From Chloroflexota bacterium (GTDB lineage Bacteria; Chloroflexota; Dehalococcoidia; JACPEP01), in the NCBI GenBank assembly GCA_016183425.1, contig JACPEP010000007.1, forward strand, positions 2,113 through 66,112: a stretch of DNA of 64,000 nucleotides. Reading direction: 5' to 3'. The translations under genes and the position numbers were made by a program. Shown here piece by piece: positions 19,645 through 46,585 of the stretch; the first letter of the stretch is position 1, and each line of letters begins with the position of its first letter. Below the pieces are notes generated by a model, which saw only the letters and a program-made list of their open reading frames with translations, was not told where the DNA came from and did no database searches.

Positions 19645-19739
19645 GGTGGGGATAGATATCGGGGTGTTCGTAAACACCCCCGCTCAAGGAAATTGACAAC
19701 CCCAGGCCATTGTGCTACCCTGCCCACAGGTATACAGCT

Positions 19740-20861
19740 ATGAAACGAGTCACCTTTCCTCATATGGGCATGATTCATGTGCCCATGGAGGTATTGTTCC
19801 GCCAGTTGGGCATCGCCTATGTGGTACCGCCCCCTTGTACCAGCCGTTCTCTGGCTCTGGCCGCCCGCTACTCCCCGGAGACGGTGTGTATACCTTACAA
19901 GCTGGTGTTGGGCAACTTCCTGGAGGCCCTGGATCTGGGGGCCAACCACCTGATCCTCCTCGCCGGCCCCAACAACTGTCGCTTTGGCTACTACGCTAAG
20001 CTCCAGGAGATGGTGCTCCAGGAGCTGGGCTATGAGTGTCATATGCTTACCCCGCAGATCTCCAGCCGCACCATTAACGGCGTCACCGATATCCTTCGCT
20101 ATCTGACGGACTATCGTGCCTCCACCTGGGACTGCCTGCGCGCCCTTTTTCTGGCTATCTCTGTGCTGCGAGACCTGGACGAGGTGGAGCGTAAGATGCA
20201 GTGGGTGAGGGCCAGAGAGATGGAGGCGGGGGCCGCCGAAGCCCTTTTTCAGCAGGCAGGAGAGGCTCTGGCTCAGGTGGACAGCTTGGGTGCCCTGAAA
20301 GCAGCTAAAAAAGAGTTTCTGAAGAAGCTGGATGCGGTGCCTATGGAGAGAGACCGGAAGCCCCTTCGCGTCAGCTTGGTAGGTGAGATATACGTGGTAC
20401 ATGAGCCTTACATTAACATGAACATCGAGCGGGAGCTGAGCCGCCGTCGGGTGGAGGTCTTCCGCTCGGAGCAACTCAGCCAGTGGCTGGTGCTGTCTCC
20501 GGCCTTGATACTGGAGGCGGCGGGATTGGGCCACGAGGCCCGCATCGCCCATGCGGCACGACCCTACCTGGAGCATATCCATGGCGAGACGGTGGGACAG
20601 ACCATCGTGGCGGAACGGGACGGTTTCCACGGCGTCATTCAGCTCACCCCCTTCACCTGCACCCCCGAGGTAGTCAACCAAAATGTCCTTTTTCGTCTCC
20701 GCCGAGAGCACGATATTCCGTTGATGACCATCATCCTGGACGAGCAGACGGGGCGATCCGGCTTTCTTACCCGATTGGAGGCTTTTATCGACCTCTTGGA
20801 GCGGCGGCGAGGTGACACGGAGGTGCGGCCACGAAGACTCAGCCTCCCCATCTTCAGATAG
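19740..20861 (+). CDS. DUF2229 / 2-hydroxyacyl-CoA dehydratase-like Fe-S subunit (paralog of 25121..26221)
   Basis: FPHMG, SPETVCIPYK, CRFGYY, GEIYV, PFTCTPE, LDEQTG, TRLEAF. Confidence 0.8.
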   Translation: MKRVTFPHMGMIHVPMEVLFRQLGIAYVVPPPCTSRSLALAARYSPETVCIPYKLVLGNFLEALDLGANHLILLAGPNNCRFGYYAKLQEMVLQELGYECHMLTPQISSRTINGVTDILRYLTDYRASTWDCLRALFLAISVLRDLDEVERKMQWVRAREMEAGAAEALFQQAGEALAQVDSLGALKAAKKEFLKKLDAVPMERDRKPLRVSLVGEIYVVHEPYINMNIERELSRRRVEVFRSEQLSQWLVLSPALILEAAGLGHEARIAHAARPYLEHIHGETVGQTIVAERDGFHGVIQLTPFTCTPEVVNQNVLFRLRREHDIPLMTIILDEQTGRSGFLTRLEAFIDLLERRRGDTEVRPRRLSLPIFR

Positions 20862-21454: not shown

Positions 21455-21840
21455 TGCCCAGTAGAAGGCAGGGGCTGGGCTCGGCGGGGGAGAACCAGGC
21501 CGCCCATTACCTGGAAAAGCGGGGATATTCCATACGGGAGCGAAATTGGCACTGTCCCTATGGGGAGATAGACATTGTGGCCGAGAAGGGGGACTGGCTG
21601 GTCTTTGTGGAGGTGAAAACGAGGCGGGGCGCTCAGTTCGGCTCCCCGGAGGAATCCATAACACCCTCAAAACGGCGCAAACTGGTGGCCGCCGCCCAGA
21701 CCTATCTCCAGACCCTCGGGGGGGAACTGCCCACTCAGTGGCGACTGGATGTAGCCATTGTGGAGCTTTCCTCCGCAGGCAAGCTCCAGCGCCTAGAGGT
21801 GCTGGAAAACGCCATCCCTACGCCGGAGGATGGTTTCTAG
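21454..21840 (+). CDS. yraN: YraN family endonuclease-like protein
   Basis: GSAGE, NWHCPYGEIDIVA, VFVEVKTR; usual neighbour of rnhB. Confidence 0.9.
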   Translation: MPSRRQGLGSAGENQAAHYLEKRGYSIRERNWHCPYGEIDIVAEKGDWLVFVEVKTRRGAQFGSPEESITPSKRRKLVAAAQTYLQTLGGELPTQWRLDVAIVELSSAGKLQRLEVLENAIPTPEDGF

Positions 21841-22696
21841 CCAGGAGTTGGGTCGGTATTCCGGCCTCACAGGGAACGCGAGTCTGGCATAGGCCACAAC
21901 CGGAGATCTCCACATTGTAACGCTGCTTTAGAGGTGCCAACTCGCCGCGAATGTAGTCCTGGCACTTGTTCTTGTCGTGCCCTTTGGCAGTGATAGCCCC
22001 GGCCGGGCAGCGATCGATGCACTCGCCACAGGACCGGTTAACCAGGAAGGGGCAGTTGGCCACGTGACTGGCGTATGCCCTGGGGGTGGGGGGAAGGGGG
22101 AGATTGGTGACTACACTGCCACAGCGATGGGCGATGCCCCGAGGGGTTATGAAGCCATCGCTGAGGCCAAAGGTGCCCAATCCCGCCACGTATGCCGCGT
22201 GGCGCTCTGACCAGTTGGAGGTGGGGCCATTGGGCATAGAGAGCCGCTTGAAAAAGGGAGCGGTGAAGGGAGCCACCGCGAGAAATCCCTCCTCTTTAAG
22301 AAAGGAAACCATATGGTCTCGCAGGGCAGTATTGAATTTTTCCCCCCAATGGCGGGTGTGGCACCAGCGGAGGGATGGTGAAAGCTCCCGCACCCGGTTG
22401 CTGCGCCGGGTCCTGCCCTCGATGGGCAGCACCCAGGAGATAACGCTTATGCTGTCCACCACTGCTTCCGGAAAGGCAGCCGACAGCGCCTCCCGGGGGG
22501 TGAAGTGGAAGTCCCCGATAATCTCTTTGTATTGGGAGAAGAGGGGGTCGTCCCCACTGGCAAAGGCTACCAGGGGCGACTGAAAGATAACATCATCATC
22601 GATCTCTAGGAGCCTGTTTTCCCTATGGCCGGACACAAAGTTCTCAATATCTTCGACTATCCGGCGCGGGGTTTCCAAGTCAGCAACTCTGGCCAT
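21818..22696 (-). CDS. QueG-like (epoxyqueuosine reductase family) Fe-S protein
   Basis: WSERHAAYVAGLGTFG, CGECIDRCPAGAI, CGLCQTRVPC. Confidence 0.7.
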   Translation of the reverse strand: MARVADLETPRRIVEDIENFVSGHRENRLLEIDDDVIFQSPLVAFASGDDPLFSQYKEIIGDFHFTPREALSAAFPEAVVDSISVISWVLPIEGRTRRSNRVRELSPSLRWCHTRHWGEKFNTALRDHMVSFLKEEGFLAVAPFTAPFFKRLSMPNGPTSNWSERHAAYVAGLGTFGLSDGFITPRGIAHRCGSVVTNLPLPPTPRAYASHVANCPFLVNRSCGECIDRCPAGAITAKGHDKNKCQDYIRGELAPLKQRYNVEISGCGLCQTRVPCEAGIPTQLLARNHPPA

Positions 22697-22752: not shown

Positions 22753-23046
22753 CTAATATCCTGAGGTAGGCGACCCCGCCGGCCGGGTGGGCGTGGTTTG
22801 GGCGGCCGGGGTTCCCGCTGCCCTGGTGGGCGTAGCTTGTGCGGCCGGGGTTCCCGCTGGCCTGGTGGGCGTAGCTGCCCCCGCCGGTGCTCTAGTAGGC
22901 GTTGGTGTGGCCTTGCCCGTCTCAGTGCAAGCCAGTAGAGCTACACTGGCCAAGCTCAGGCCTACTCCACCAAATGCCCGTAGCACTCGCCGACGGGATA
23001 GTTGTCTCCCCAGAATGCTGGCGGTGATTCCTTCTCTTTTTACCAT
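22753..23046 (-). CDS. Small Tat-type lipoprotein made only of Thr/Pro/Ala repeats
   Basis: SRRRVL...LLAC leader followed by ATPTRPAGTPAAQ-like repeats with a 39-bp period. Confidence 0.65.
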   Translation of the reverse strand: MVKREGITASILGRQLSRRRVLRAFGGVGLSLASVALLACTETGKATPTPTRAPAGAATPTRPAGTPAAQATPTRAAGTPAAQTTPTRPAGSPTSGY

Positions 23047-23142: not shown

Positions 23143-24120
23143 CTAAATCCGGGCTCCTCTTAGAGCTTCCAGCATGTCCTTCTCCACCTCTTGTTTAGCT
23201 ACCCGAATCGCATTCTTCACTGCCTTGGCATTGCTGCGCCCGTGGGCGATGACTACCACGCCGTTTACACCCAAAAGGGGTGCGCCACCGTACTCAGCGT
23301 AGTCCAGACGCCTCTCCACCTCTTGCCACAGATTGTGCAGGGGAGAGGTGGCGGCGGGAAACTGAAGGGACAAAGCCTGATTCAGGATGTCCATGAAGGT
23401 CTCGCTGACGCCCTCCAGCAACTTGATGACTATGTTGCCGGTAAAGCCGTCGCTGATCACCACGTGGGCTACGCCCCGGGGAATGTCCTTGCTCTCGATG
23501 TTGCCCAGGAAGTTTATGGGCGCCTGCTTGAGCAGCTCATGGGCCTCTCGAACCAGATGGTTGCCCTTCACGTACTCCTCGCCATTGCTCAAAAGGGCGA
23601 TACGAGTATCCGCGATGCCGAAAACTCGCTCCATATACGCCTTGCCCAGGCGGGCGAATTCAGGGAAGAAAGAGGGTTTACAATCGGCGTTGGCCCCCAC
23701 ATCCAGAAGAAGAGTGGGGCCGGCTGGGGTGGCCAGGACGCTGCCCAAGGCAGGACGCTCCACTCCTTCTATCCGCCCCAAAACCATGAGGGCGGCCGCC
23801 ATGGTGGCCCCCGTATTGCCGGCGGTGACAAAGGCCGCTGCCTTACCTGCCTTCACCAGATCAAGGCCCACCATGATAGACGATTTGGGCTTCTGGCGCA
23901 GGGCGTTGATGGGCGATTCCTCCATGACTACCACCTGGGGAGCATCCACGATGGTTATCGCATCCGGTGGGGAAGAATAACGGGCCAGCTCCACCTCCAG
24001 AAAGTGCTTGCCACCCACCAGCGCCACCTCCACCCCCAGGAGAGTAGCCGCATCCAGCGCCCCCCGCACGATCTCCCCGGGCGCGTGATCCCCCCCCATG
24101 GCGTCCAGGGCTATCTTCAT
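23143..24120 (-). CDS. plsX: Phosphate acyltransferase PlsX
   Basis: MKIALDAMGGDHAP, AGNTGA, DVGAN, DGFTGN, YGGAPLLG, HGRS. Confidence 0.96.
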   Translation of the reverse strand: MKIALDAMGGDHAPGEIVRGALDAATLLGVEVALVGGKHFLEVELARYSSPPDAITIVDAPQVVVMEESPINALRQKPKSSIMVGLDLVKAGKAAAFVTAGNTGATMAAALMVLGRIEGVERPALGSVLATPAGPTLLLDVGANADCKPSFFPEFARLGKAYMERVFGIADTRIALLSNGEEYVKGNHLVREAHELLKQAPINFLGNIESKDIPRGVAHVVISDGFTGNIVIKLLEGVSETFMDILNQALSLQFPAATSPLHNLWQEVERRLDYAEYGGAPLLGVNGVVVIAHGRSNAKAVKNAIRVAKQEVEKDMLEALRGARI

Positions 24121-25097
24121 GCTTGCTGCTCCACCGACGCCGATGTCCTCTCCCACATATCGCAGCGGCCACCCCAACGGGCCACTACCTTACCGTCTCC
24201 CATTATCTGGGCGATCTCACATATGTTGGCACAGGCCTTACACTCGAAAGAGGAGGTGTGAAAACTCATGTCGCTGATGCCGAAGCCTCTGAACTGGGTC
24301 TCTCGGCGATGGCTCTCTATCTCTTCTTTGGCCAGGAGGGCGGCGCCAATAGCCCCCATTACCTCATGGTAAGGTGGAACGATGAGCTTGGTCTTTAGGG
24401 TGTCCTCGAAGGCGCGCACAATGCCAGGATTGAAGGCTACCCCGCCTTGGAAAACAACGGGGGGCAGTATTTCCTTGCCCAGCCCGATGTTGTTGAGGTA
24501 GTTACGCACCAGGGCCTCGCACAGGCCGTAGAGAATATCCTCTGTACGATGCCCCATCTGCTGCTTATGAATCATGTCTGATTCGGCGAAGACGGTACAC
24601 CGCCCGGCAATGCGCACCGGCATCTGGCTCTCCAGGGCTTGGCGGCCGAAGTCCTCTATTTTCATACTGAGGCGGGAAGCCTGCTGGTCAAGAAAGCTAC
24701 CGGTGCCCGCAGCACATACGGTATTCATGGCGAAGTCCACCACTACTCCCTGGCGAAGGATGATGATCTTGGAGTCCTGGCCTCCGATCTCAAAAATGGT
24801 TTGGACATCCGGAACGTAGTGGGTGGCACCCACGGCGTGAGCGGTGATCTCGTTCTTCACCACGTCGGCCCCCACCAGCACTCCCGCCAGGTAGCGAGCG
24901 CTGCCGGTAGTCCCCACCCCTCTTACCACCGCCCCCGCCGGTAGGCATTCCGCAATATCCCTCATGCCCTGCTGCACCATAACGATGGGCTTGCCCTGGG
25001 TGCGTAGATAAAGGCTGCCTACCAGCCCCTCATTTTCGTCTAGTGCCGCCAGCTTGGTGGTCACCGAGCCGACATCGACACCTAGATAAATTTCCAT
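24117..25097 (-). CDS. BadF/BadG/BcrA/BcrD-type ATP-dependent activase
   Basis: GVDVGSVTTK, NEITAH, EIGGQDSK, CAAGTGSFL, RCTVFAES, QGGVA. Confidence 0.92.
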   Translation of the reverse strand: MEIYLGVDVGSVTTKLAALDENEGLVGSLYLRTQGKPIVMVQQGMRDIAECLPAGAVVRGVGTTGSARYLAGVLVGADVVKNEITAHAVGATHYVPDVQTIFEIGGQDSKIIILRQGVVVDFAMNTVCAAGTGSFLDQQASRLSMKIEDFGRQALESQMPVRIAGRCTVFAESDMIHKQQMGHRTEDILYGLCEALVRNYLNNIGLGKEILPPVVFQGGVAFNPGIVRAFEDTLKTKLIVPPYHEVMGAIGAALLAKEEIESHRRETQFRGFGISDMSFHTSSFECKACANICEIAQIMGDGKVVARWGGRCDMWERTSASVEQQA

Positions 25098-25120
25098 AAT
25101 AGCTTCGTCTCCTTATTTTC

Positions 25121-26221
25121 TCACGGTACCAAGGCCGCCACTGCTAATCCCTTCCGCGCCCTCCTTCGTCGCAGTAGCTCTACGAAGGCCTCCAGCCGGG
25201 TAAGCATCCCTGCCCGCCCCATCTGCTCGTCACAGATGACGGTGAGCACGGGAATCCTGGTCTTAATGGCCGGGAAGATATTCTGAGCGATTATTTCCGG
25301 CCCGCAGGTAAAGGGGGCCACATGGATCAGGCCGTCGTAATCATGGCTGTGGAGGATAATGTCTCCCACGGACTCCCAGCCGTCACCCCCCACGTCCCGC
25401 CGCAGGTAGGGAGCCGCCGCCTGATGGATGCGGTCCTTCTCGCTGAGGCCGAAGGCATTGAGGAAGAGGCTGAACTTCATCCACTCCGAGACGAAGGTGG
25501 TTCGCCTCACCTCCGCCCCCAGCCGTCCCAGTTCCCTTTCCAGGTCCATGTTGCTGAATGGCTCCAGGACGACGTAAAACTCCCCCGTGATGCCCACCAC
25601 CACCGGCTCTGTCTCCCCATCCCTTTCTACCTGTTGTAGCTTCATCAGGTACCTATTTTTTATTTCCTTCAGAGCCGCGCGGCTATCCGCCCCATCGATG
25701 GCCGCCAGCGCCTGCTGAAAGACCTGGTCGGCGCTTCCCTTTTCCGCCTCGGTGGCTCTGACCTGATGGAGCACCCTCTCCAGCTCATCCAGGGTACCCA
25801 GCTTAGCGAGGCCGAAACGGATAGCGGCCAACACTTTCTGGGTGGGGGCACCGTTAGACAGGCGCTTCACCAGGTTGGCCACCCCCATAAGCTTGCTCTC
25901 AAAAAGCTCCGTGGTGACCATCTCGAAGTGATAGCCTTGATCCCGGAGGATACGCTCTTGAATCTTAGCGTAGTAGCCGAAGCGACACAGGCCCGGCCCG
26001 GCGGCCATGACCAGGGTATCGGCTCCCATCTCCAGGGCTTCGATAAAGTTGCCCAGGGTGAGCTTGAAGGGGATACACACGAACTCGGGGGAGTGCTTGG
26101 CCCCCAGGGTCAGGGTGCGGCGGCTGTTGAGGGGGGGCACCACCATCTCCACTCCCACCTCCCGGAAGAGGGTCCTGAGGGGCACGTAGATGTGGCCCAT
26201 GTGGGGCATGGCTACCTTCAT
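25121..26221 (-). CDS. DUF2229 / HgdAB-like Fe-S dehydratase/reductase subunit
   Basis: PHMG, SPEFVCIPFK, CRFGYY, PFTCGPE, DEQMG, TRLEAF. Confidence 0.8.
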   Translation of the reverse strand: MKVAMPHMGHIYVPLRTLFREVGVEMVVPPLNSRRTLTLGAKHSPEFVCIPFKLTLGNFIEALEMGADTLVMAAGPGLCRFGYYAKIQERILRDQGYHFEMVTTELFESKLMGVANLVKRLSNGAPTQKVLAAIRFGLAKLGTLDELERVLHQVRATEAEKGSADQVFQQALAAIDGADSRAALKEIKNRYLMKLQQVERDGETEPVVVGITGEFYVVLEPFSNMDLERELGRLGAEVRRTTFVSEWMKFSLFLNAFGLSEKDRIHQAAAPYLRRDVGGDGWESVGDIILHSHDYDGLIHVAPFTCGPEIIAQNIFPAIKTRIPVLTVICDEQMGRAGMLTRLEAFVELLRRRRARKGLAVAALVP

Positions 26222-27207
26222 GCTTTGCCTTCCCACCCTTGTCTGCGGCGCAGCATGTCCATGAAGGCCTCGAGACGGGTCACTAAACCGGCCTCGGCGG
26301 TGTGCTCGTCGATGGTAATGGCCATGAAAGGCTTGCTTACCCGTTGGGCATAGCGCTTGACCACGTCTATCATCACTGAGTCGGGGCCGCAGCCGAAGGC
26401 GATTATGGCGATGACTCCATCTACCTGGCTGTCTAGATAGTGACCCCCCGCTCCGGTTACTTCGTCCTCGTAAGTCCAGTAGGGCTTGCCAATGAGTCGG
26501 GTTACTCCTCTGTCCAGCTCCTGGATCTGAGCCATCTCTGGAGTGACCACCTGGGCCCCCAACTGACGGAGTCGCTGAAGGAAACGATGGTTAATGTATT
26601 CATCATAAAGGACGTAGGGGTGACCGATGAGGGCGATGGTGGCAGAGGAAGGGTTTACCCCCTCCTCGTCGGAGGGCATCCCATCTTCCATTCGGCTCAG
26701 AGCGCAAGAGAGAGTGATGCCCTCCTCCCTCGTCTGGCTCTGAAAACGCATGTGGCACTGCCACGCTGCCTCGGCCGCCTCTTTTACCTTCAGGGGATTC
26801 CAGGTGAAGCGGCGGGCCAGGGCATAGATGGCCAGATAGAAACCTCGTTTGCCCTCCTTGCTGATGTCAATGTCCGGGTCCAGAAGGGGGGGACACTCGG
26901 GCACTACTGCTTTCACCACATCGGGCAGGCCCAGAAACTTAGAGCAGTTGTAGGCGTCCCTTTCGATGCTTCGGATACTGGGGACAAAGACATAGTCGCA
27001 TTTGCCTACCAGGGAGATGACGTGGCCGCAGAAGACCTTTACCGGCAGGCAGGTCTCGGCTACCACCCGCGCCGAGCCCGAGGTCACCGTCCCCCTGGTA
27101 GTGGGGGGGCTGGTGACTACCTGGGCCCCCAGATGCTGGAAGAAGGTCTTCCACATGGGGTAATACTGGTAGTAAAGGAGAGCCTGGGGAATACCGACAG
27201 TGGTCAT
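26218..27207 (-). CDS. DUF2229 acyl-CoA dehydratase activase-related subunit
   Basis: VGIPQALLYY, ETCLPVKVFCGH, CSKFLGLPD, GHPY, FGCGPDS, IDEH, TRLEAF. Confidence 0.85.
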   Translation of the reverse strand: MTTVGIPQALLYYQYYPMWKTFFQHLGAQVVTSPPTTRGTVTSGSARVVAETCLPVKVFCGHVISLVGKCDYVFVPSIRSIERDAYNCSKFLGLPDVVKAVVPECPPLLDPDIDISKEGKRGFYLAIYALARRFTWNPLKVKEAAEAAWQCHMRFQSQTREEGITLSCALSRMEDGMPSDEEGVNPSSATIALIGHPYVLYDEYINHRFLQRLRQLGAQVVTPEMAQIQELDRGVTRLIGKPYWTYEDEVTGAGGHYLDSQVDGVIAIIAFGCGPDSVMIDVVKRYAQRVSKPFMAITIDEHTAEAGLVTRLEAFMDMLRRRQGWEGKA

Positions 27208-27225
27208 AGTTCCTTCCGATGCCTC

Positions 27226-28707
27226 TTAGCTCAGGGGTTGGCAGCCTACCGGAGCGCTACAGCCGTTATTTTCATCTTCCACGGGCGGGAAACACCGGCT
27301 GGTGTAGTCAAAGGTCTTTTTCCAGGGCTCCGCCCAGGGGCGGTACTTCTCTTCCCAGATGGGATGGTAGAGCTGGTGAATTTGGGTGGAGTAGTCGTCC
27401 AGACCTTCGGATAGCCAGGTTACCAGGCTCTCTGCTCCCTCGTGAGTGGGATAGGCTCCCCACTTTTGCACTGCCATGCGCTGTATCTGGGGGTGGTCGA
27501 TGAGGGGGCAGGGGAGAAGGGTATTGCCGCCATAGGGCTGGAGGCCGCGTAGGCCCTGGAGGAAAGGCGAGGTCAGGGCCTCGGCCAGAGAGCACTCCTT
27601 AATATTGTGGGTGGCGAAGTGATTGAAAACGCAGGGCTCCACGTCCCCCTTATGGTTGACGTGCAAGTAGATGCGGCCAGAGGCGATGCAGCCGCCGGTA
27701 AGGGCGGAATCCCCCCAGAAGTCGGCCAGAAGGATGGGCTTGGTACGCCGCATCCGCTCCACCGCCTGGCGAAGCTGGCTCCGCTGCTGGGGGGTGGGCA
27801 TGTAGGATAGGTCGGGGTTACGGCCGATGGGCATGTACAGGAAGTACCAGCCGGTCATGGCCCCCTTCTCGATCATCAGGTCTATGAACTCTTCGCCGCT
27901 GGCGATGTCGATGTTCTGTCGCGAAACCATGCAGCTAAAGGCGAAGATACCGCCCGCCTTGCTTAGGTTGTCCATAGCCCGTAGGCAACGACCGAAAGCG
28001 CCCTGCCCTCTTCGCAAATCGGTATCCGACTGGAAGCCCTCGATGCTTATCTGGGGGGCCACGTTGCCCAACTCCACCAGCTTCTCCGCCATCCTCTCAT
28101 CGATAAGAGAGCCGTTGGTGTACATCTGGAAGGCAGCATCGTCGTGCTTCTTAAACATTCTCAGGAGAGGCTCATAGACCAGGGGTTCGCCCCCGGTGAG
28201 GACGAAATAGCGGATGCCCATCTCCTTGGCCTCGGTAAGGAGACGGTCGAAGACATCTTCCGGCAGGTCATCCTTCTTGGTATACTGTCCCGCCCAACAA
28301 CCCACGCAGCGATAATTGCACCTCATAGAGGGGGAAATAACCATAATGCCGGGAGGAGCGAAGCCGTGCTCTGCCTTGAAACGATTGCGCGCTCCCGGAT
28401 CCCGGAAGAAAAGGTTGACGATAGTCTGGGCAATATATTTTTTGCGAACGTTGGGATGGATATTTTGGAATACCCTGTTAAGGAACTGAGACCCGGGGCT
28501 GCCGGGCGCCATCCACTCTCTGACCCAACCGGCGATTTGCCGCTGCTGCTCGTTGTGGGCCAGGTAAGCGAGCACGGTCGCCAGGCGATAATGATTTTTT
28601 TCTGAGGAGTGCCCCAGCAGGTTTATGGCTTGACTTACCAGGTTCTCGGCCAGCTCCAACTTGGCTTTGGTGTAGAGGGCGCTGCCCCAAGTAGCCAGGG
28701 AAACCAT
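27226..28707 (-). CDS. Radical SAM/SPASM protein (candidate Mss-like lipid-coupling enzyme)
   Basis: CNYRCVGC, TGGEP, YTNG, GGCIASGR...EPCVF...PCPLIDHP auxiliary cluster motif. Confidence 0.85.
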   Translation of the reverse strand: MVSLATWGSALYTKAKLELAENLVSQAINLLGHSSEKNHYRLATVLAYLAHNEQQRQIAGWVREWMAPGSPGSQFLNRVFQNIHPNVRKKYIAQTIVNLFFRDPGARNRFKAEHGFAPPGIMVISPSMRCNYRCVGCWAGQYTKKDDLPEDVFDRLLTEAKEMGIRYFVLTGGEPLVYEPLLRMFKKHDDAAFQMYTNGSLIDERMAEKLVELGNVAPQISIEGFQSDTDLRRGQGAFGRCLRAMDNLSKAGGIFAFSCMVSRQNIDIASGEEFIDLMIEKGAMTGWYFLYMPIGRNPDLSYMPTPQQRSQLRQAVERMRRTKPILLADFWGDSALTGGCIASGRIYLHVNHKGDVEPCVFNHFATHNIKECSLAEALTSPFLQGLRGLQPYGGNTLLPCPLIDHPQIQRMAVQKWGAYPTHEGAESLVTWLSEGLDDYSTQIHQLYHPIWEEKYRPWAEPWKKTFDYTSRCFPPVEDENNGCSAPVGCQPLS

Positions 28708-28847
28708 TTTAGCCTCCTTTCTACCTGTCACTGTCGCCGCCGCGGGCCTTCACCCCCTGGGCGGCCGCCCCCCCGTCCTCCCTTTTTGAAAATACAGTCC
28801 AAAGTTTACCACACAAAAAGCAATTTGCAAATTCTGGTTTTTGGCTT

Positions 28848-29438
28848 TCAGCCCGCCGTACCTAAGACGAAAAGGCTCATCGCCGCCGCCGATAGCAACG
28901 GGACTCGCAGATTGTCGTCTGTGGGCAAGGGCAAAACCTCGAAGAGGGCAGCGGCTACCGCCCCCATCCCCACTACCTCCAGGCTTACATCTAGCCAAAC
29001 CAGGCTGATTAGGGTCCCTATCCCCAGGGAAGCGGCCAGCCCTCCCAAGCTCCCCTCCAGGGTTTTGCTGCCCAGCCGCATCTTTCCCCACCCCTCCCCA
29101 ACGAAAGCCGCCGTGGGATCGCCCACGGCGGAGTAGGCAATGGCTAGGGTGGATATGGCTCCTGGGAAGATAAGCAGTGCCAGGAAGGAAGCTATGATAA
29201 GGTTAGTAGCTCCCGTGAGGTGAAAGCTCTCCTCTCTCTTCATGGCCGGAGCGGCGTAGCGAAAGAGCCATCTCCCCACGGAGGGGATCCGAAAGCGAGC
29301 TATCTCGATGCCTAAGGCGATGACAGCGACCGCGCCCACAAAAGGCAACACAAACCATGACGGCAGGGTCAGTGCCAGAAAAACGATGGTGAGACCGCCA
29401 ACGATGTGGATCAGTCTCCTGACGATTTTACCCCTCAT
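28848..29438 (-). CDS. SEC59/DGK1/VTE5-like CTP-dependent lipid kinase (membrane)
   Basis: RRLIH, GDPTAAFVG, KTLEGSLGG, DDNLRVP; multiple TMs. Confidence 0.8.
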   Translation of the reverse strand: MRGKIVRRLIHIVGGLTIVFLALTLPSWFVLPFVGAVAVIALGIEIARFRIPSVGRWLFRYAAPAMKREESFHLTGATNLIIASFLALLIFPGAISTLAIAYSAVGDPTAAFVGEGWGKMRLGSKTLEGSLGGLAASLGIGTLISLVWLDVSLEVVGMGAVAAALFEVLPLPTDDNLRVPLLSAAAMSLFVLGTAG

Positions 29439-30660
29439 CCTCCCCTTCCCCAGGAATCCCGCCGGGACGGCCTTTGTAGAACTCCTCCCTTACCTTTGCC
29501 AGGGCCTCCGGCTGAAGCACCAGGTCCACCCAGGTCATGGCCAGGGCACGGGAGCCATCCAGGAGGCCTTTGAGACCATCCGAGGAAGCGGCGGCGGCAG
29601 CAAACTCGGGAGTGTGGCCCAATACTGTCTTGGGGGCGATAGCCACTGAGGGGTGGATGCTGGGCACCAACTGACTGACATTTCCCATGTCCGTGCTGCC
29701 CATGCCGCCCAGACCCCCATCGGAAGGAATAACCCTTCGGCCCAGGGACTCCAGGTTGTGGGCGAATAGTCGAGCCAGGGAGTGGTTGGTGCGCATAGGG
29801 GCGTAGCGCACCGCCGACCAGCGGTGCTCCAGGCGGGCGCCCGTGGCCAGGGAGGCCGCCCGGAAGCAGTTGAGGACCTTTTCCATCAGCTCTTCCAAAT
29901 AGTGGTCGTCCTCGGCCCGAACCAGGAAGGTGGCGGCGCTGTGGGCAGGGACGATGTTGGGAGCCTGCCCCCCGTGGGTGATGATGCCATGTATCCGGGC
30001 CCGATCCTTGGTGTGCTGCCGGAGAGAGTTGATGTTGTTGAAGGACAGGATGAGGGCTTCCAGGGCATTGACCCCCTCCTGGGGCCGGGCAGCGGCGTGG
30101 GCCGCCTTGCCGTAGAACTCTACCTGAAGCTCGATGCAGGCCAAAGAACGGGCGAATACGGCGTTCCTCACTCCAGGGTGAATCATCAGGGCGGCATCGA
30201 GACCCTGGAAGGCCATGCGCTGGGCCATGATGGCTTTGCCTCCCATTACCTCCTCGGCGGGGGTGCCGATGACCAGCACCTTGCCTCCCCATTGGGCCGC
30301 GGCCTCTCGTACCGCCACCGCAGCTCCCACCGCGGCGGCGGCGATGATGTTGTGGCCGCAGGCGTGGCCCAGCCCGGGCAGGGCGTCGTACTCAGCGATG
30401 AAGGCCACCGCCGGCTCGCCGTTGCCGTAGACGGCCCGAAAGGCGGTCTCCAACTGGCAATAGCCTCGCTCTACGGCGAAGGCCTTGCCTTCCAGGTATT
30501 CCGTCAGCCACGCCGCCGCTTTGAATTCCTGGAAACCCGTTTCGGGGTGAGCGTGGAGGCGTAGGCTCAGGGCCATCAGTTCCTCGCGCTGCGCCTCCAC
30601 AGCGGTCGCCACCTTATCTTTCCAAATCCTTACCCCTGGGTCTTCAGCCCCTGGCGGCAC
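29428..30660 (-). CDS. M20 family amidohydrolase (ACY1L2/PM20D2-like)
   Basis: EYDALP, HACGHN, GTPAEE, HAAARP, GSTDMGNVS. Confidence 0.9.
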   Translation of the reverse strand: MPPGAEDPGVRIWKDKVATAVEAQREELMALSLRLHAHPETGFQEFKAAAWLTEYLEGKAFAVERGYCQLETAFRAVYGNGEPAVAFIAEYDALPGLGHACGHNIIAAAAVGAAVAVREAAAQWGGKVLVIGTPAEEVMGGKAIMAQRMAFQGLDAALMIHPGVRNAVFARSLACIELQVEFYGKAAHAAARPQEGVNALEALILSFNNINSLRQHTKDRARIHGIITHGGQAPNIVPAHSAATFLVRAEDDHYLEELMEKVLNCFRAASLATGARLEHRWSAVRYAPMRTNHSLARLFAHNLESLGRRVIPSDGGLGGMGSTDMGNVSQLVPSIHPSVAIAPKTVLGHTPEFAAAAASSDGLKGLLDGSRALAMTWVDLVLQPEALAKVREEFYKGRPGGIPGEGEDEG

Positions 30661-31209: not shown

Positions 31210-33156
31210 TCACACATTGTTACAGTCTTTGGGGTCTCGTCCCAGTGCACGGAGAGCTGACGCCACCAGCTCGCCTCCGTCTGGCAGCGCGTCGCGGGCT
31301 CGCCAGGCGCGGCACAGAGAGGCCACCGCTTCCTGGCTGCGTCCCAACTGCCCCAGCCTCACCCCTTTGTTGAACAGGGCCTGGGCTACCTGTTCCCGCA
31401 GGGCCGGAGCGCTGTCCTCTCCAAATCGCCTCACAACCTCGTCGTAGACGGCCACCGCTTCCTGGCTGCGTCCCAACTGCCCCAGCCTCACCCCTTTGTT
31501 GAACAGGGCCTTAGCTACCGGCTCCCGCAGGGCCGGGGCGCTGTCCTCTCCAAATCGCCTCACAACCTCGTCGTAGACGGCCACCGCTTCTTCGCTGCGT
31601 CCCAGTTGCCCCAGGGCCACCCCTTTGTTGAACAGGGCCTTAGCTACCGGTTCCCGCAGGGCCGGGGCGCTGTCCTCTCCAAATCGCCTCACAACCTCGT
31701 CGTAGACGGCCACCTCTTCCTGGCTGCGTCCCAGTTGCCCCAGGGCCACCCCTTTGTTGACCAGGGCCTCTGGGAACGAAGGCCGTATGGCCAGGGCGCA
31801 TTGAAAGCAGTCCAGGGCCTCCTTGTGTTGCTGGAAGCCGAGGGCGTAGGTTACCCCTAAAGAGAATAGGCCCTCGTGGTCAGCCAATTTCTGCATCGAG
31901 TCAGCCACGATAGGGAAGTGGTCATGAGGTGTGCTGCTGTGGAGATAGGGAACTACCGGCTTCTCCAGCCTCAAGCTAAGGTACGCTGCCTCAGGCCATA
32001 CCGGGTCTCGGTCTCCAGGATAATGCAAGAAAGCCAGTGTGGCCAGGTGTTCCAAACCATCGCGGAGATGGATGTCTTCACATTGGAACACATCGGCGAG
32101 GATCTGGCGGATGCGAGAATGCGTAAACGGCACGACGCCTGCCGCTCCCAGAAGCTGCATCGCCCGCAAGCAGTCCTTCTCAGGACCAGACAGGCGGCGG
32201 TCGAATCGCTCGCGCATGTCTTTGAAAGCATCCTCCAGGATGATGCTTCCCACGGTGGGAAACTCCCAGCTCGAATCGGTAGGCAACGATTTTCCGATAC
32301 CGGTGGCGACACGCTGCTTTTCTTCATCGGTAAGCGGCTGCAAGGTAAATTTTGGCAGGATGTCTTCATAGACCTTGTGGAGTGTTTTACTAGTCGCTTG
32401 GCGAATGCCGTCCAGCTCCGTCCCGTCCTTACATGCGGCGGCCACCGCCCACTTGCATCCTTTTTGGCGATTCAACTCATCGCATAATTGCAGCAGGTCT
32501 ACCTCTGCGTCGACGTAAAAGTTCAGATCGTCCAGAAGCAGAATCACCGCTTTGCCTGACACAAGGGACAACGCATCCTTAGAAGGGTGATGATTTCTTT
32601 TTGGCCGGATGACGGTATGACCGCGCAGGCCATGCACAACCTCATACAGTGTCCGGCTCTTCCCGTCCGTAGGCTGCCCTACCAGGATAAAACTTTTCCC
32701 TTGGCATAGCTCACTGCGGAGACGATCCTCGTCATAAATCGGGATCGCCGTCGTCTGCCCTCTCAGCTCGAACGGGACGGCACGCCGCTTGACGTAGACC
32801 GGGTGATATGGACGATATTGACGGTCTGGCGGCTCATCACCTTGCACTACCTGAAACCGCAGGTCACGGGGCACCAGCTTTTCGGTTGTCTTGAAGAGGT
32901 CGAACTCCTCCTGCCAGGTTCTCCGGCGGTCTTGGTTCTCCTTATCGCGCCATGATAACCCTGACCATAGAGAGACCAGCGCTAAGAAAACAACCGCTAA
33001 CACAAGTGCCCACCAGTAGCGGTGAAGAAAAAGATCTACCTCGGGGAGGAGGGATGCAAACAGCCGGTTTACGAGTATGCCAATGCCCGCGGCGACCAGA
33101 ACGGTCGCCCACACCCATTTAAGCGCTGGCCAGATACGCCACATCTTTCTGGTCAT
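31210..33156 (-). CDS. Membrane-anchored P-loop NTPase with C-terminal TPR repeats
   Basis: Two N-terminal TMs, GQPTDGKS (Walker A), LLLDD (Walker B), 43-aa ALFNKGVxLGQLGRS repeats. Confidence 0.75.
   Translation of the reverse strand: MTRKMWRIWPALKWVWATVLVAAGIGILVNRLFASLLPEVDLFLHRYWWALVLAVVFLALVSLWSGLSWRDKENQDRRRTWQEEFDLFKTTEKLVPRDLRFQVVQGDEPPDRQYRPYHPVYVKRRAVPFELRGQTTAIPIYDEDRLRSELCQGKSFILVGQPTDGKSRTLYEVVHGLRGHTVIRPKRNHHPSKDALSLVSGKAVILLLDDLNFYVDAEVDLLQLCDELNRQKGCKWAVAAACKDGTELDGIRQATSKTLHKVYEDILPKFTLQPLTDEEKQRVATGIGKSLPTDSSWEFPTVGSIILEDAFKDMRERFDRRLSGPEKDCLRAMQLLGAAGVVPFTHSRIRQILADVFQCEDIHLRDGLEHLATLAFLHYPGDRDPVWPEAAYLSLRLEKPVVPYLHSSTPHDHFPIVADSMQKLADHEGLFSLGVTYALGFQQHKEALDCFQCALAIRPSFPEALVNKGVALGQLGRSQEEVAVYDEVVRRFGEDSAPALREPVAKALFNKGVALGQLGRSEEAVAVYDEVVRRFGEDSAPALREPVAKALFNKGVRLGQLGRSQEAVAVYDEVVRRFGEDSAPALREQVAQALFNKGVRLGQLGRSQEAVASLCRAWRARDALPDGGELVASALRALGRDPKDCNNV
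31321..31768. repeat. Intragenic tandem repeat, about 3.5 x 129 bp
   Basis: Near-identical units start at 31321, 31450, 31579 and 31708. Confidence 0.9.
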
Positions 33157-37957: not shown

Positions 37958-38032
<75 letters not shown>

Positions 38033-38403
38033 TCGCCCTCATGATAATCTCCCCGCCATCTAAATTCAATACCCTGTACTCGTTCGTTGCGGTTGTCATC
38101 ACCCGCCAAGATGGTGGCAGGGGTATGATCAGTGGCGTGGAGAAGCAGAGGGATGGCTCTGTTATTTTGGCCTTGAAAGGGTGTACCTGACATACCTTCA
38201 CTGTGCGCCCATTCCTCTAAGGTGCTTTCAGGCTCTTGAGTTGGTCTCTTTATTTCGATAATTTGTTGTACAATATCTGCGTTATATGGGCCAATTCAAG
38301 ATAGTTAACCGCTGCTATTGTGCCACCTCATAAGAGCCAGTACCTTCGCTACCCAGAAATCGGGGTAGGGCCGATCCACGGTGTAGCTAATCGGGTGGGG
38401 TGA

Positions 38404-39654
38404 GTGAAGCCCTCCAGAGCCTTCCTGGGAAACCGGGGGCTCGTCTTTCTCTGCCTCACTACGGCTATTTGCATGATGGGCAATGGCATTGCCACTCCCC
38501 TATTGCCTCTTTTCGCCCAAACCTTCGATATAACGGTAGCACAAATAGGGAGCATCATCAGTGCCTTCGCCTTCGCCCGCATTCTGATCAATGTCCCCGC
38601 CGGCTATTTCTCGGAACGTTTCGGGCGCCGTCTGTTGCTGGTTGGGGGGCCTTTGATTATGGGGATTGCCTCTCTTCTCACTGGTGTAGCGGGGGATATA
38701 GGGCAATTGGTGGGGTACCGCTTTATGACTGGAATCGGTTCGGCCATGTTCACCACGGGTGCCATGGCCTATCTAGCTGACATAAGCCTGCCCGAGAACC
38801 GGGGGCAGATAATCGGCTACTATCAGATCAGTTTCCTGGTCGGGGTGAGCTTTGGTCCCATGGTGGGGGGGCTGGTGGCCGACCGCTGGAACTACCCCAC
38901 TGCCTTCTTCCTGGTTGGCTTCTTGTCTCTGGTTAGTGCCATATGGGCCTTCTTCCGTATACCAGAAACACGGGGGCCTGGAGTGACGGTCTCTTCGGGG
39001 GAGGTGCCTCACCAGACCCTAGAGGGGGGGCAGACATGGCAAGGTGTGGTTTTGCTTCTGGGGAACCCGAATTTTCTTCTCATAAGCTTCCTTACCATAG
39101 GCTACTTCTTCACTCGAACCGGCTCCCAGCATGGCCTGGTTCCTCTCCTGGGGCATAACCGTTTAGGCCTCACCCCTGGCCAGCTAGGAGCTATTTTCAC
39201 CGCCAGCGCCATTACAAACCTGGCCGGGCTCCTGGTGTCTAATGCCATCACCGACCGGATCGGCCGGAAACGGGTCATTATTCCCAGCACACTTATATGC
39301 ATCATAGGATTGGTGCTCTATGTCTTCAGCGGCAGTTGGTGGGTTTTCCTGGTAGCTACCTTGGTATCCGATCTAGGCAGCGGGCTATCTGGCCCCGCCC
39401 CGGCTGCCTACGTTACCGACCTCACCCCTCGAGGCCTTTATGGTGTCAGCATGGGGATATACCGAACTTTCGGAGACCTGGGCTTCGTCCTCGGGCCGGT
39501 GCTCCTGGGCTGGATAGCGGACCTGACCGGCAGCCTGGAGACGGCCATCCTGGCCAATGCTTTTCTACTCACCTCTGTCATAGCCATCTTCGCCTTCATG
39601 TCCAAGGAGAGGCCCCGTCTCCCATCTCCGGAAGCGGAGGTGTCTCTTCCTTAG
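38404..39654 (+). CDS. MFS transporter
   Basis: About 12 TMs; motif A GYFSERFGRR and TDRIGRK. Confidence 0.92.
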   Translation: MKPSRAFLGNRGLVFLCLTTAICMMGNGIATPLLPLFAQTFDITVAQIGSIISAFAFARILINVPAGYFSERFGRRLLLVGGPLIMGIASLLTGVAGDIGQLVGYRFMTGIGSAMFTTGAMAYLADISLPENRGQIIGYYQISFLVGVSFGPMVGGLVADRWNYPTAFFLVGFLSLVSAIWAFFRIPETRGPGVTVSSGEVPHQTLEGGQTWQGVVLLLGNPNFLLISFLTIGYFFTRTGSQHGLVPLLGHNRLGLTPGQLGAIFTASAITNLAGLLVSNAITDRIGRKRVIIPSTLICIIGLVLYVFSGSWWVFLVATLVSDLGSGLSGPAPAAYVTDLTPRGLYGVSMGIYRTFGDLGFVLGPVLLGWIADLTGSLETAILANAFLLTSVIAIFAFMSKERPRLPSPEAEVSLP

Positions 39655-39947
39655 AAAGCGCCCTCGATGATCAAAGGTTTAGGCGGCAAGCCCCAAAACC
39701 GTAGAAAAATGGCTGTGTTTGCGTTGGTATCTTTTGAGCAAGGCGTGAGTGCACTGGGGTAGCGCCGTAACTTGTTTGGGAACCCCAGTTCTTATCCTCT
39801 CCAACATCACACCAAGTTCAGTAATTTTCGCACTATAATTTTTGGAAACAACGTGGTATTTGAATTGATGCAACATGTGAGAGCGAATGCATCGGCCTTG
39901 AAGACGTATAAGAATTTTCCCATCCTTAATCAGGTGCCGGAGGTTAG

Positions 39948-41594: not shown

Positions 41595-41624
41595 GGGGAG
41601 AAGGGGCTATCTTGAAATGAGCAG

Positions 41625-41707
41625 CCCCCTCGCTGGAAAACAGCGAGGGGGAAAGTGGAATAGGCGATGCTAAGTAAGGGGGGCTGGGTCTTAACCCAGC
41701 CCCCCTC
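41625..41707. terminator. Two hairpins between convergent genes
   Basis: CCCCCTCGCTG-GAAAA-CAGCGAGGGGG and GGGGGGCTGGGT...ACCCAGCCCCCC. Confidence 0.65.
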
Positions 41708-41785
41708 GCAAAAAACCTAAGTGAGTATTCAGCGTCCTGCCCGGTGCGACCTCGCTGCTTCGGGTTGAGGCATCACCTTGAACAA

Positions 41786-43465: not shown

Positions 43466-43627
43466 GTCTCCTCCTTTCTTAAATGGCCCTTCGAAACGGC
43501 TACCCTATAGCTCTCGGATGCACCGGTAAATACTCCATATAGACACCCCCCGTACTAATAAGAACTCTGGCCAGCGATAGTGCCTTTCATTTGGGCGAGG
43601 GCAGCCCAAGTCACGGGATTAGGCTGT

Positions 43628-43894
43628 CTATGCCTTGCGCATGCTTGTAATTGCCCAATCCACTATGACCGCCACGATAGAGCCAATGACCGCCGAGAGC
43701 AGATGAACTTCGCCAAACTTTGGATCGAAGGTCAAGCTAGGAGCCAGAAGACCCTCAGCGGCCCAGATGCCCAGGAAGGGGTAAGCAGCCACCCTCCAGA
43801 CCCTGTCCGGGACGTTTCCCTGAAGAAGGCTGTACCACAAGATGCCGAGACCGTAGGCAAGACCCACGATGAATAAAAGCGTTCCAATTTCCAC
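43628..43894 (-). CDS. Small membrane protein (transglycosylase-associated-like)
   Basis: 88 aa, three hydrophobic segments, GGAGG RBS. Confidence 0.6.
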   Translation of the reverse strand: MEIGTLLFIVGLAYGLGILWYSLLQGNVPDRVWRVAAYPFLGIWAAEGLLAPSLTFDPKFGEVHLLSAVIGSIVAVIVDWAITSMRKA

Positions 43895-44114
43895 TTAACT
43901 GCCCTCCGAGAAGATACTGTTAGTAACCCGCCCTCCGATAGATGCCAAACTATAGGCTGCCCTCGCCTAAGTCGATAGCATAGCACTTTGGCAACCGATT
44001 GTCATCACTCGTAGTTGAGAGTGTTTGGCAACTTTTTCGACCGTCTCCCGGGCCCCCGTCAAATTTCCTTGCCCTGCCCTGTTGGTCTTTAACAAAATAA
44101 GCGATCAGTCGGAG

Positions 44115-44347
44115 GATACCCCACAATTATGGTGTTAAACAAAATAAAGTGGTAACTGGATACCCCACACTTATGGTCATCAAGTAATTATTATGTCTCA
44201 AAAGCGGCAGGCTTCGTTGTCATTCTGAGCCCGCCCGGAGGCGGGCGAAGAATCTCTGGAAGCACATGGAGATTCTTCGGTCGCTGCGCTCCCTCAGAAT
44301 GACATGATGTCAGTTTATTTAGTTTATGACCATAATTGTGGGGTATC
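44115..44347. mobile_element. MITE-like element, copy 2, with an extra left end
   Basis: TIRs GATACCCCACA(C/A)TTATGGTCAT at 44159-44180 and 44326-44347; partial third copy at 44115-44133; inner TGTCATTCTGAG...CTCAGAATGACA hairpin. Confidence 0.78.
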
Positions 44348-44375
44348 GATAACACGCAACTGCTGAACCACCCAT

Positions 44376-44430
44376 GTAGTCGGGGTCGTCCCTGACCCTG
44401 ACCGTCGGCATCGGGGACGATGCCGACTAC
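44376..44430. repeat. GTAG REP, nested/compound
   Basis: GTAGTCGGGGTCGTCCCTGACCC...GTCGGCATCG-GGGA-CGATGCCGACTAC. Confidence 0.7.
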
Positions 44431-44619
44431 CGTCAAGGGAGACTAGCGCAGACGAAGCTTAATGTTGAGCTACTTCGTCAACCGCCCTAAGGGCAGGGCT
44501 ATAGGTTCTCTCTCAGGCCCGCCTATTAGGGCGGCGCGGCGACACTAATCAAAACCCTCGTAATGGCAATCCAATATGGTAAGAAGAATAAAGAAGTCCC
44601 CAATGTGTCCTTCATTGTC

Positions 44620-46506: not shown

Positions 46507-46585
46507 AAGTTACACACTTACACCAGACTTCCCTGGCCGGCCTGGCAAGGGAATGCCCCAGGCGGTGGCAATGGGCCTAAGGCAG

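Follow-up and report, generated by a model that had tools for sequence, protein, structure and literature searches.

An operon joining a probable Mss-family radical SAM protein to a predicted free-subunit relative of the PlsA/PlsR/Ger reductases in a Dehalococcoidia genome

Introduction

Branched glycerol dialkyl glycerol tetraethers (GDGTs) serve in many studies as proxies of temperature and pH, and their anaerobic producers and the pathway of their formation are poorly constrained. Mss and Ger were reportedly identified in 2022 as separate, unlinked genes. In this study, we analyzed a stretch of 64,000 nucleotides (nt) from a Chloroflexota bacterium of the class Dehalococcoidia (GenBank assembly GCA_016183425.1, contig JACPEP010000007.1, positions 2,113 to 66,112 of the forward strand), which is called the window in the following. 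It contains an operon in which the gene of a radical SAM protein, probably of the Mss family, is joined to genes for three subunits that are related to the fused Ger and PlsA enzymes, and the two kinds of genes are found as partners in two phyla.

Mss is the membrane-spanning lipid synthase, represented by Thermotoga maritima Tmari_0825 and the Thermoanaerobacter ethanolicus enzyme (Sahonero-Canavesi et al. 2022, PMC13159169). The accessible part of this work describes Mss and Ger as acting on membrane lipids only under anoxia, and gives tandem activation domains fused to a reductase (BBDH...) as the architecture of Ger, which is known as Tmari_0479 in T. maritima and SHJ90043 in Desulfatibacillum alkenivorans. 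Two BcrAD/BadFG domains together with DUF2229 are described for both Ger and PlsA in the accessible text of PMC13159169 and PMC12838417. PlsA/PlsR of Clostridium perfringens (CPE1194/1195) is a multi-subunit member of the benzoyl-CoA reductase/2-hydroxyacyl-CoA dehydratase (BCR/HAD) family encoded by more than one gene; according to the available excerpts it acts on ester lipids, and its activase domains are fused to the first reductase domain. In the accessible parts of the Mss and Ger literature, either protein alone alters lipids, both together lead to ether-bound membrane-spanning lipids, and the two modules are separate, co-occurring in some lineages. In this accessible literature, which did not cover the supplementary accession lists, we found neither an mss gene described as adjoining a relative of ger or plsA nor a description of a three-gene form with a free activase.

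Results

Gene organization of the operon

The window lies in a genome of 2.7 Mb (95% complete, 52 contigs). Its neighbours within the class are small in genome size, as is usual for Dehalococcoidia. Its DNA was traced to four DNA runs of one groundwater metagenome study, and no RNA run was among the sequencing runs listed as carrying it. Genomes, contigs and loci are given as G, C and L numbers where they have to be told apart. According to the listing of open reading frames (ORFs) and their translations, the following genes are co-oriented on the minus strand, given in the direction of reading:

29428-30660, minus strand: M20 amidohydrolase (TIGR01891, 215 bits; cut-off 154)
28848-29438, minus strand: polytopic membrane protein of 196 amino acids (aa), with no Pfam or NCBIfam match over cut-off (CTP_transf_1, PF01148, E=0.15)
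27226-28707, minus strand: radical SAM protein (rSAM), 493 aa (PF04055, 76 bits; SPASM 20.4 bits, below the cut-off of 21.5)
26218-27207, minus strand: D2 (DUF2229, 183 bits, model positions 1-217 of 218; HGD-D 26.6 bits, cut-off 28.4)
25121-26221, minus strand: D1 (DUF2229, 40 bits, N-terminal part only; HGD-D 14.6 bits, E=0.025)
24117-25097, minus strand: activase with a single PF01869 (BcrAD/BadFG) domain (154 bits; TIGR00241, 183 bits)
23143-24120, minus strand: plsX (TIGR00182, 328 bits; cut-off 243)

The Pfam cut-offs are 29.4 bits for DUF2229 and 28.4 bits for HGD-D. Six of these genes, from the membrane protein to plsX, had been named in a preliminary description of this DNA, and all six were found again. 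Their order within the DUF2229 pair has to be corrected: the strong DUF2229/HGD-D gene is the first of the two (D2, 183 bits) and not the second, as had been proposed. Also, the "lipid kinase-like" gene exists, and this label rests only on look-alike leads, no Pfam match reaching its cut-off.

Reading of the junctions from the sequence agreed with the preliminary description. ATGA overlaps are present between D2 and D1 and between activase and plsX, so that the activase stop overlaps the plsX start, and the gaps amount to 18 nt between rSAM and D2 and 23 nt between D1 and activase. The start codon ATG of rSAM at 28707 is preceded by an AGGAGG ribosome-binding site. A spacer of 140 nt separates the membrane-protein gene from rSAM, whereas the end of the M20 gene and the start of the membrane-protein gene share 11 nt. 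When the operon was scanned for promoters and terminators, nothing above shuffled sequence was obtained. We take rSAM-D2-D1-activase-plsX to be a translationally coupled operon, preceded by the M20 and membrane-protein genes. The arrangement exceeds chance, since the same order is found in relatives and the pairing of rSAM with D and activase genes recurs in a second phylum.

Relation of the reductase unit to fused PlsA- and Ger-size proteins

A fused protein of 1386 aa from the same class contains two BcrAD/BadFG domains and DUF2229. The activase aligns to its residues 19-276 and 321-644 with 37-38% identity, D2 to residues 669-972 with 27% and D1 to residues 997-1385 with 26%. Comparison was extended to nine fused proteins of 1026-1426 aa from two phyla, in which BB stands for two activase domains. 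Activase, D2 and D1 are colinear with seven BB-D-D proteins (1380-1426 aa), and activase and D2 also with two BB-D proteins (1026 and 1037 aa); identities were 34-49% for the activase, 27-32% for D2 and 24-29% for D1. The BB-D class of about 1030 aa was found in Desulfobacterota, at L107 (G223:C11:220000-230000) and L106 (G302:C2:17000-27000). At L107, a separate D1-like ORF of 694 aa lies within the same 10-kb stretch as the BB-D protein, which looks like the two-gene PlsA/PlsR arrangement.

The activase carries a C-terminal Cys-rich tail with the motif FxCxxCxNxCE...WGxRC. This tail is common to the orthologues in L009, L030, L051 and L093, and in the 1386-aa fused protein the same motif forms the linker behind its second activase domain; contig C38 of the window genome encodes two classical activases, and both are devoid of it. 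The cluster-binding cysteines in the CAAGTG and RCTVFAES motifs of the activase align with cysteines of the fused proteins. Colinearity and the common Cys-rich linker bear out the proposal that activase, D2 and D1 correspond to the parts from which enzymes of the PlsA/PlsR/Ger type are built.

The unit thereby has the activation domain, the DUF2229 domain and the colinear homology of this enzyme type. It lacks the tandem fused activation domains of Ger (BBDH...), the window holding one free activase and separate D2 and D1 genes. Likewise, it differs from PlsA, whose activase domains are fused to the first reductase domain in the accessible description, by a free and single activase. For a tree of the D2 part, 30 D2-like segments from the loci fetched were used and rooted on D1-like paralogues, no experimentally proven Ger or PlsA being among the rows. 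All nine fused-protein segments formed one clade (support 100/99), in which the D2 type of the window is not included, so that orthology with the fused enzymes is not indicated. Fused forms also coexist with the split type in the same genomes, as detailed in the Discussion; in the window genome, none was found with D2 as query. Because of the separate clade and this coexistence, the split type is regarded as a distinct, old subfamily. The possibility of a recently split Ger was rejected for the same two reasons. From sequence comparison, D2, D1 and activase are predicted to be a free-subunit form of the PlsA/PlsR/Ger enzyme type, forming an old subfamily of its own with a single activase domain. 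The "split" Ger-like reductase of the preliminary description thus holds in the sense of free subunits of that type and fails in the sense of a recent split of Ger. It is reasonable to say that the split type works like Ger or PlsA, and not supported to say that it is Ger.

The structure model of D2 (predicted local distance difference test, pLDDT, 90.4) matched HadB/C, DCCP, BzdNO or MbdON chains in all Foldseek matches listed to rank 19, and residues C53, C88, C273 and D300/H302 (DEH motif) are invariant in 23 sequences. Judged from the model, D2 is likely the catalytic subunit, of HAD/BCR/DCCP fold with DUF2229 and an HGD-D-like C-terminus. D1 is a diverged D2 paralogue and presumed to be the partner subunit. 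About three conserved cysteines are present in each, three being invariant in D2 and the count for D1 coming from its own sequence alone. The commonest longer relatives are fusions of D2- and D1-like halves of about 700-760 aa, which speaks for D2 and D1 acting as one unit. Relatives carry the NCBI name "acyl-CoA dehydratase activase-related".

Lone D1-like paralogues are also present in the window genome, with no D2 or activase gene beside them. One lies in the window:

19710-20861, plus strand: D3, lone D1-like paralogue (DUF2229, 42 bits; faint HGD-D), upstream of RNase HII

The other is found on contig C50 (G000; L098:8482-9570, minus strand). D3 is 56% identical to the D1-like half of a 721-aa fused protein adjoining rSAM in G044, and D1 48%. 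These paralogues may be alternative partner subunits for the single D2, and membership of D3 in the module is uncertain.

Comparison with the wider family showed the following likenesses. In the PDB sequence search, the activase matched MbdQ (3e-42), HadI (8e-36), HgdC (6e-35) and DCCP-R (1e-23). The systems HadBC/HadI, HgdAB/HgdC and BzdNOPQ/MbdONPQ hence resemble the unit in the activase (1e-35 to 1e-42 to HadI, HgdC and MbdQ) and in the modelled fold of the catalytic subunits, and an ATP-driven injection of electrons would be expected here as well. Unlike in these systems, HGD-D stays under its cut-off in the window genes (26.6 bits for D2 and 14.6 for D1 versus 28.4), while DUF2229 is far above in D2, and the activase has the extra Cys-rich tail. 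No CoA-transferase and no aromatic or amino-acid degradation genes were seen among the neighbours. Accordingly, the unit shares the fold with the 2-hydroxyacyl-CoA dehydratases and does not belong to them by domain score or fermentation context; a grouping with the dehydratases of amino-acid fermentation, which the preliminary description had wished to see checked, was not obtained. The double-cubane cluster protein DCCP of Carboxydothermus hydrogenoformans with its reductase DCCP-R (PDB 6ENO, 7YYL) has the same fold, a separate ATP-dependent activase and weak sequence matches (D2 C-terminus E=0.17, activase 1e-23). DCCP is a homodimer with a six-Cys cluster, whereas D2 and D1 have diverged from each other and hold about three conserved Cys each, and the NCBIfam double-cubane model reached 22.6 bits against a cut-off of 350.

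The radical SAM protein and its family

rSAM begins with a helical domain of about 120 aa, followed by the radical SAM core and a twitch/SPASM-like C-terminal part, in which three more cysteines are conserved. Among 55 NCBIfam matches, no model exceeded its own cut-off. Members of the family have about 455-500 aa, and the helical N-terminal domain is conserved. Across 83 family members, exactly six cysteines reach a conservation of 99-100%, namely 138/142/145 (CX3CX2C) and 348/367/408, with residue numbers following the ORF of 501 aa. The motifs CxxxCxGCWA, GGCIA and PCP, on which the preliminary description had based the resemblance to Mss, are present, and their cysteines are among those conserved in the family. 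From the six cysteines, a SAM cluster is expected together with an auxiliary cluster whose fourth ligand is open or not a cysteine. For such an auxiliary cluster, the accessible part of PMC13459092 reports a mechanism shown for Tes and postulated for Mss.

A search of protein databases gave 1988 clusters at E<=1e-5 among 7999 candidates scored, and 4044 clusters at E<=1e-20 with a Synergistota member of the family as query. At least 590 relatives were detected in species genomes. The best 80 loci of these came from Chloroflexota, Desulfobacterota, Actinomycetota (Humimicrobiia type, Thermoleophilia), Patescibacteria, Atribacterota, Synergistota, Armatimonadota, Omnitrophota, Nitrospirota, Zixibacteria, Woesearchaeota and one Methanosarcinales bin, with no Thermotogota or Bacillota member among the 80. 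The nearest clusters in the ESM Atlas were Bacillota proteins of 455-462 aa, which serve as a lead only. Among the matches listed from the protein-database, species-genome, plasmid (tblastn) and Atlas searches, no sequence of Thermotoga, Thermoanaerobacter, Dictyoglomus or C. perfringens was present.

The phylum list published for Mss homologues overlaps closely with this range, both in PMC13159169 and in the accessible part of PMC11868695. In the former, at least 30% identity and E<=1e-50 to a characterized Mss are used as the criterion for Mss. The window rSAM resembles Mss in the radical SAM core with CX3CX2C (C138/C142/C145 invariant in the 83 members) and in extra cysteines that fit the auxiliary-cluster mechanism postulated for Mss in the accessible part of PMC13459092. 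Further likenesses are the confinement to anaerobes and the occurrence alone in most genomes; the unusual phylum range, with candidate phyla, DPANN archaea, Humimicrobiia and Gammaproteobacteria, is a more indirect agreement. It differs by adjoining a reductase module, a linkage not mentioned for Mss in the accessible literature. Given the matching phylum range and the cysteine counts, rSAM quite probably belongs to the published family of Mss homologues.

Tes/GDGT-MAS (PDB 7TOL, 7TOM), whose proposed chemistry is the model for Mss, is likewise a radical SAM enzyme with a C-terminal auxiliary cluster on three cysteines. In contrast to Tes, rSAM has no further conserved cysteines for the extra N-terminal cluster or the rubredoxin-like iron site. 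The accessible part of PMC13274423 describes Mss models as having a catalytic architecture like Tes. For the model of the window rSAM (pLDDT 80.4), comparison by Foldseek and VIA-align gave generic SPASM/twitch matches, which are weighed in the Discussion.

Further copies of the gene were observed. The window genome holds a second one, 51% identical, at C30:64126-65475 (L005:9303-10757), followed by a lipoyl-synthase-like radical SAM gene and surrounded by a DNA polymerase X-like gene, a thiamine pyrophosphate enzyme and a molybdenum hydroxylase; the 20 kb around it contain neither D nor activase nor plsX genes. Several Desulfobacterota genomes have 2-5 copies of the family. Standalone homologues with 34-36% identity occur on IncF plasmids of Escherichia albertii (L088:2254-3633) and Klebsiella pneumoniae (L089:9031-10332), where they adjoin IS66 elements and are uninformative for function.

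Linkage of rSAM with the reductase genes

The linkage was surveyed by tblastn of the window proteins on 83 rSAM loci, of which 3 came from the genome search and 80 were the best of the species-genome scan (22 of these 80 being shorter than 8 kb). D and/or activase genes were present within 10 kb of rSAM at 12 of the 83 loci in four gene orders. Loci with rSAM beside genes of the module showed these arrangements:

L009: rSAM-D2-D1-activase-plsX, as in the window
L010: rSAM-activase-plsX
L011: M20-rSAM-plsX
L008: M20-membrane protein-rSAM
L006: fused D2-D1 (721 aa), then rSAM
L026, L030, L032, L035, L043 (Desulfobacterota): rSAM-D1-D2-activase
L051, L065, L072, L083: rSAM, with the activase 2-7 kb on and D1 (also D2 where the contig reaches) on the opposite strand

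The linked loci are spread over three clades of the rSAM tree (quick method, 83 rows) and two phyla. The four different gene orders indicate maintained proximity rather than a single inherited block. DUF2229 was the top Pfam family among the 130 co-oriented immediate neighbours of rSAM (11 members), followed by housekeeping genes of one actinobacterial clade.

Co-occurrence was counted in samples of 151 genomes from each phylum. In Chloroflexota, rSAM was found in 3 and the D2 type in 11 genomes, and the three rSAM genomes all have the D2 type. In Desulfobacterota, 35 genomes carry rSAM (E<=1e-80) and 8 the split or short D type; these eight all carry rSAM, with the rSAM and D genes adjacent on one contig in six, and Ger-size proteins are present in most genomes of the sample. 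Related genomes are not independent, so the co-occurrence counts overstate the statistical weight. On the comparative sequence evidence, rSAM and the split reductase can be taken as genomic partners in two phyla, in line with the coupling put forward in the preliminary description.

plsX and other neighbouring genes

PlsX makes acyl-phosphate. The plsX gene of the operon is the only one to which PF02504 gave a match in this genome, which is 95% complete. The activase-plsX overlap, and thus the translational coupling, is present in the window, L009 and L010, and plsX follows rSAM in L011. PlsX was detected in 135 of the 151 Chloroflexota genomes, a tally which includes the unpublished genome G038, on which nothing else here relies. 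The plsX link was found in three close relatives and is absent from the ten other Chloroflexota genomes with the D2 type; we regard it as real, though of recent origin and specific to this lineage. Beyond plsX, the minus strand encodes an ORF of 97 aa devoid of a family match (22753-23046) and, further downstream, a QueG/reductive-dehalogenase-like Fe-S protein (21818-22696; TIGR02486, 32 bits, under cut-off); neither was found after plsX in L010.

In L008 and L011, the gene directly before the membrane-protein/rSAM genes is an M20 homologue. It also lies directly upstream of D2-D1-activase units devoid of rSAM in L093 (8540-9736) and L095 (8452-9666), i.e. two of the seven examined rSAM-free Chloroflexota D2-type loci directly follow an M20 amidohydrolase. 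This recurrence in relatives marks M20 as part of the conserved context.

For the membrane protein, the ESM Atlas look-alikes bear the automatic names "diacylglycerol/polyprenol kinase family" and "phosphatidate cytidylyltransferase family" (template modelling score 0.86-0.93), and in one Atlas cluster the fold is fused to PlsY; both are leads only. A homologue with 42% identity precedes rSAM in L008. From these structural comparisons, the protein possibly has the CTP-transferase-1 or diacylglycerol-polyprenol kinase fold.

The Desulfobacterota block also holds an ATP-grasp gene, a polyprenyl-phosphate-type family 2 glycosyltransferase (GT2), B12-binding radical SAM genes, MMPL transporters and a CsgG/NHL lipoprotein. 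B12-binding radical SAM genes were present at 11 of the 83 loci. Seven are located directly beside rSAM (L024, L025, L027, L028, L046, L054 and L087, from Armatimonadota, Zixibacteria, Nitrospirota, Patescibacteria, Desulfobacterota and one further bacterium) and four after the D1-D2-activase block (L026, L030, L032 and L043). None of them exceeded an NCBIfam cut-off, and the nearest models were BchE, HpnJ, HpnR and "lipid biosynthesis B12-binding". In this pathway, they are candidates for enzymes that methylate the chains or form rings.

Two further features of the window were recorded. At 31210-33156 (minus strand), a protein of 648 aa is encoded with an N-terminal membrane segment and a C-terminal tetratricopeptide repeat region, the latter containing three near-identical tandem units of about 45 residues each. 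In the second half of the window, from about 38000 to 56000, the G+C content drops from about 0.60 to 0.50-0.56.

Discussion

We favour, at about an even chance, that the module of the window remodels membrane lipids under anoxia, with a probable Mss-family rSAM acting on acyl tails and a PlsA/Ger-type reductase on the same lipids. In this process, rSAM would modify or couple the acyl-chain ends of membrane glycerolipids under anoxic conditions. D2 and D1 would constitute the Fe-S catalytic pair of BCR/HAD/DCCP fold, and would be primed by a low-potential electron, injected at the cost of ATP by the single-domain activase, which is presumably a homodimer with a [4Fe-4S] cluster between its subunits. 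Thereby, the D2/D1/activase unit could reduce glycerol ester bonds towards alk(en)yl ethers, while PlsX would supply acyl-phosphate for the lipid backbone. The observed genes and domains, their colinearity with the fused proteins, the conserved ligand residues and the recurrent linkage are the basis from which we infer the substrate, the products and the order of the steps; the carrier may accordingly produce branched GDGT-like lipids. The pattern in the accessible Mss and Ger literature, with modules that are separate and together in some lineages, fits this module.

Several observations weigh against it. All 18 split or D2-D1-fused segments fall outside the fused-protein clade of the D2 tree. 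The D2 type and proteins of about 1400 aa occur together in G020, G056, G077 and G086 of the Chloroflexota sample, and split and fused forms together in at least five of the eight split-type Desulfobacterota genomes (G151, G166, G168, G208 and G245). Given this coexistence, the D2 type is not the orthologue of Ger in these genomes and may have another function. At 71 of the 83 rSAM loci, no D or activase gene is present in the locus, 22 of the 80 scan loci being shorter than 8 kb, and 8 of the 11 Chloroflexota D2-type genomes are devoid of rSAM. For the rSAM model, the closest solved folds are the peptide maturases SkfB (Z 26.2) and SuiB (23.9) and anSME (23.7), below which Tes/GDGT-MAS (7tom) ranks 30th with Z 17.1 and a root-mean-square deviation of 3.3 over 248 residues; the PDB sequence search gave no Tes match to rSAM at E<=0.001. 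The plsX link is confined to three close relatives, with the window plsX being the housekeeping copy, and plsX lies on the contig of D2 in none of the ten other Chloroflexota D2-type genomes. Also, M20 stands upstream of two rSAM-free D2-D1-activase units, for which the lipid reading does not account. Coexistence, separate clade and the M20 link together leave room for a different substrate or a role in the rSAM step.

Two alternatives make use of this room. First, though we rate it as unlikely, the module might serve the same lipid pathway with no ether being formed. D2/D1/activase would then catalyze another ketyl-type reduction or dehydration on an acyl tail, an acyl-phosphate or an acyl-carrier intermediate, or serve the rSAM step, e.g. 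by acting on a chain-coupling intermediate. This would agree with a subfamily apart from the fused PlsA/Ger-size clade and with the presence of fused forms in the same genomes, which suggests that the two are not redundant. The split type of the Desulfobacterota sample, being restricted to rSAM genomes (8/8) and mostly adjacent to rSAM (6/8), and the translational coupling of the acyl-phosphate-making plsX to the activase in three genomes would agree as well. However, the rSAM-free genomes among the Chloroflexota D2 type (8/11) show that there is no dependence on rSAM everywhere, and ester-to-ether conversions are the only proven activities of the DUF2229 branch in the accessible literature.

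The second alternative, which appears quite improbable to us, lies outside lipid metabolism: M20 together with D2-D1-activase would reduce or dehydrate a small molecule at the expense of ATP, e.g. the product of N-acyl amino acid hydrolysis, similar to 2-hydroxyacyl-CoA dehydratases or the double-cubane reductase. In this case, rSAM would act as a maturase of the SPASM/twitch type on a peptide or cofactor, drawing on the same low-potential electron supply. Such a route would be in keeping with the position of M20 directly upstream of two rSAM-free D2-D1-activase units and ahead of the rSAM block of L008, L011 and the window, and the best solved folds for rSAM (SkfB, SuiB, anSME), the equality of the D2 fold with HadBC, DCCP and BzdNO and the NCBI naming of relatives as "acyl-CoA dehydratase activase-related" point in the same direction. 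The domain scores (DUF2229 at 183 bits, HGD-D under cut-off) and the Cys-rich activase tail, found in fused PlsA/Ger-size proteins and not in classical activases, argue otherwise. Genes for a CoA-transferase, a precursor peptide or amino-acid fermentation were not seen nearby; in other phyla, the neighbours include MMPL transporters, B12-binding radical SAM proteins and polyprenyl-phosphate-type GT2, and rSAM stands alone in most genomes, unlike peptide maturases.

Adjacency devoid of functional meaning, i.e. a housekeeping plsX and unrelated anaerobic enzymes packed in a small genome, would suit the sole plsX copy with a link absent from the wider phylum, the start/stop overlaps common in compact genomes and the promoter/terminator scan no better than shuffled sequence, but it is strongly disfavoured by the comparative data and very improbable given that the pairing is present at 12 of 83 loci, which span two phyla and three rSAM clades and show four gene orders, and given the 8/8 co-occurrence in an independent phylum sample against a background of 35/151.

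Returning to the favoured lipid-remodelling module, a bolder version may be put forward tentatively and with considerable doubt: the free D2/D1/activase would be a dedicated, co-evolved partner of the Mss-family rSAM, turning tail-coupled tetraesters into tetraethers, and together with the B12-binding radical SAM proteins would mark an anaerobic gene cluster for branched GDGT-like lipids. If so, Dehalococcoidia-like and Syntrophia-like anaerobes would be source organisms, and published screens demanding near full-length matches to fused Ger would miss such carriers.

An operon joining a likely Mss family to a free-subunit relative of Ger and PlsA would, if the assignment is true, be the first gene-context evidence of one pathway for both steps. 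With four or five genes, it is a compact construct suited to Escherichia coli. The reductase form described here would then have been overlooked by coverage-based homology screens, and Chloroflexota and Desulfobacterota may have more potential for ether lipids than is assumed at present. The B12-binding radical SAM neighbours are candidates for the missing chain-methylating or ring-forming steps. If the substrate of the reductase proves to be different, the operon would instead reveal a new function in a large uncharacterized enzyme branch.

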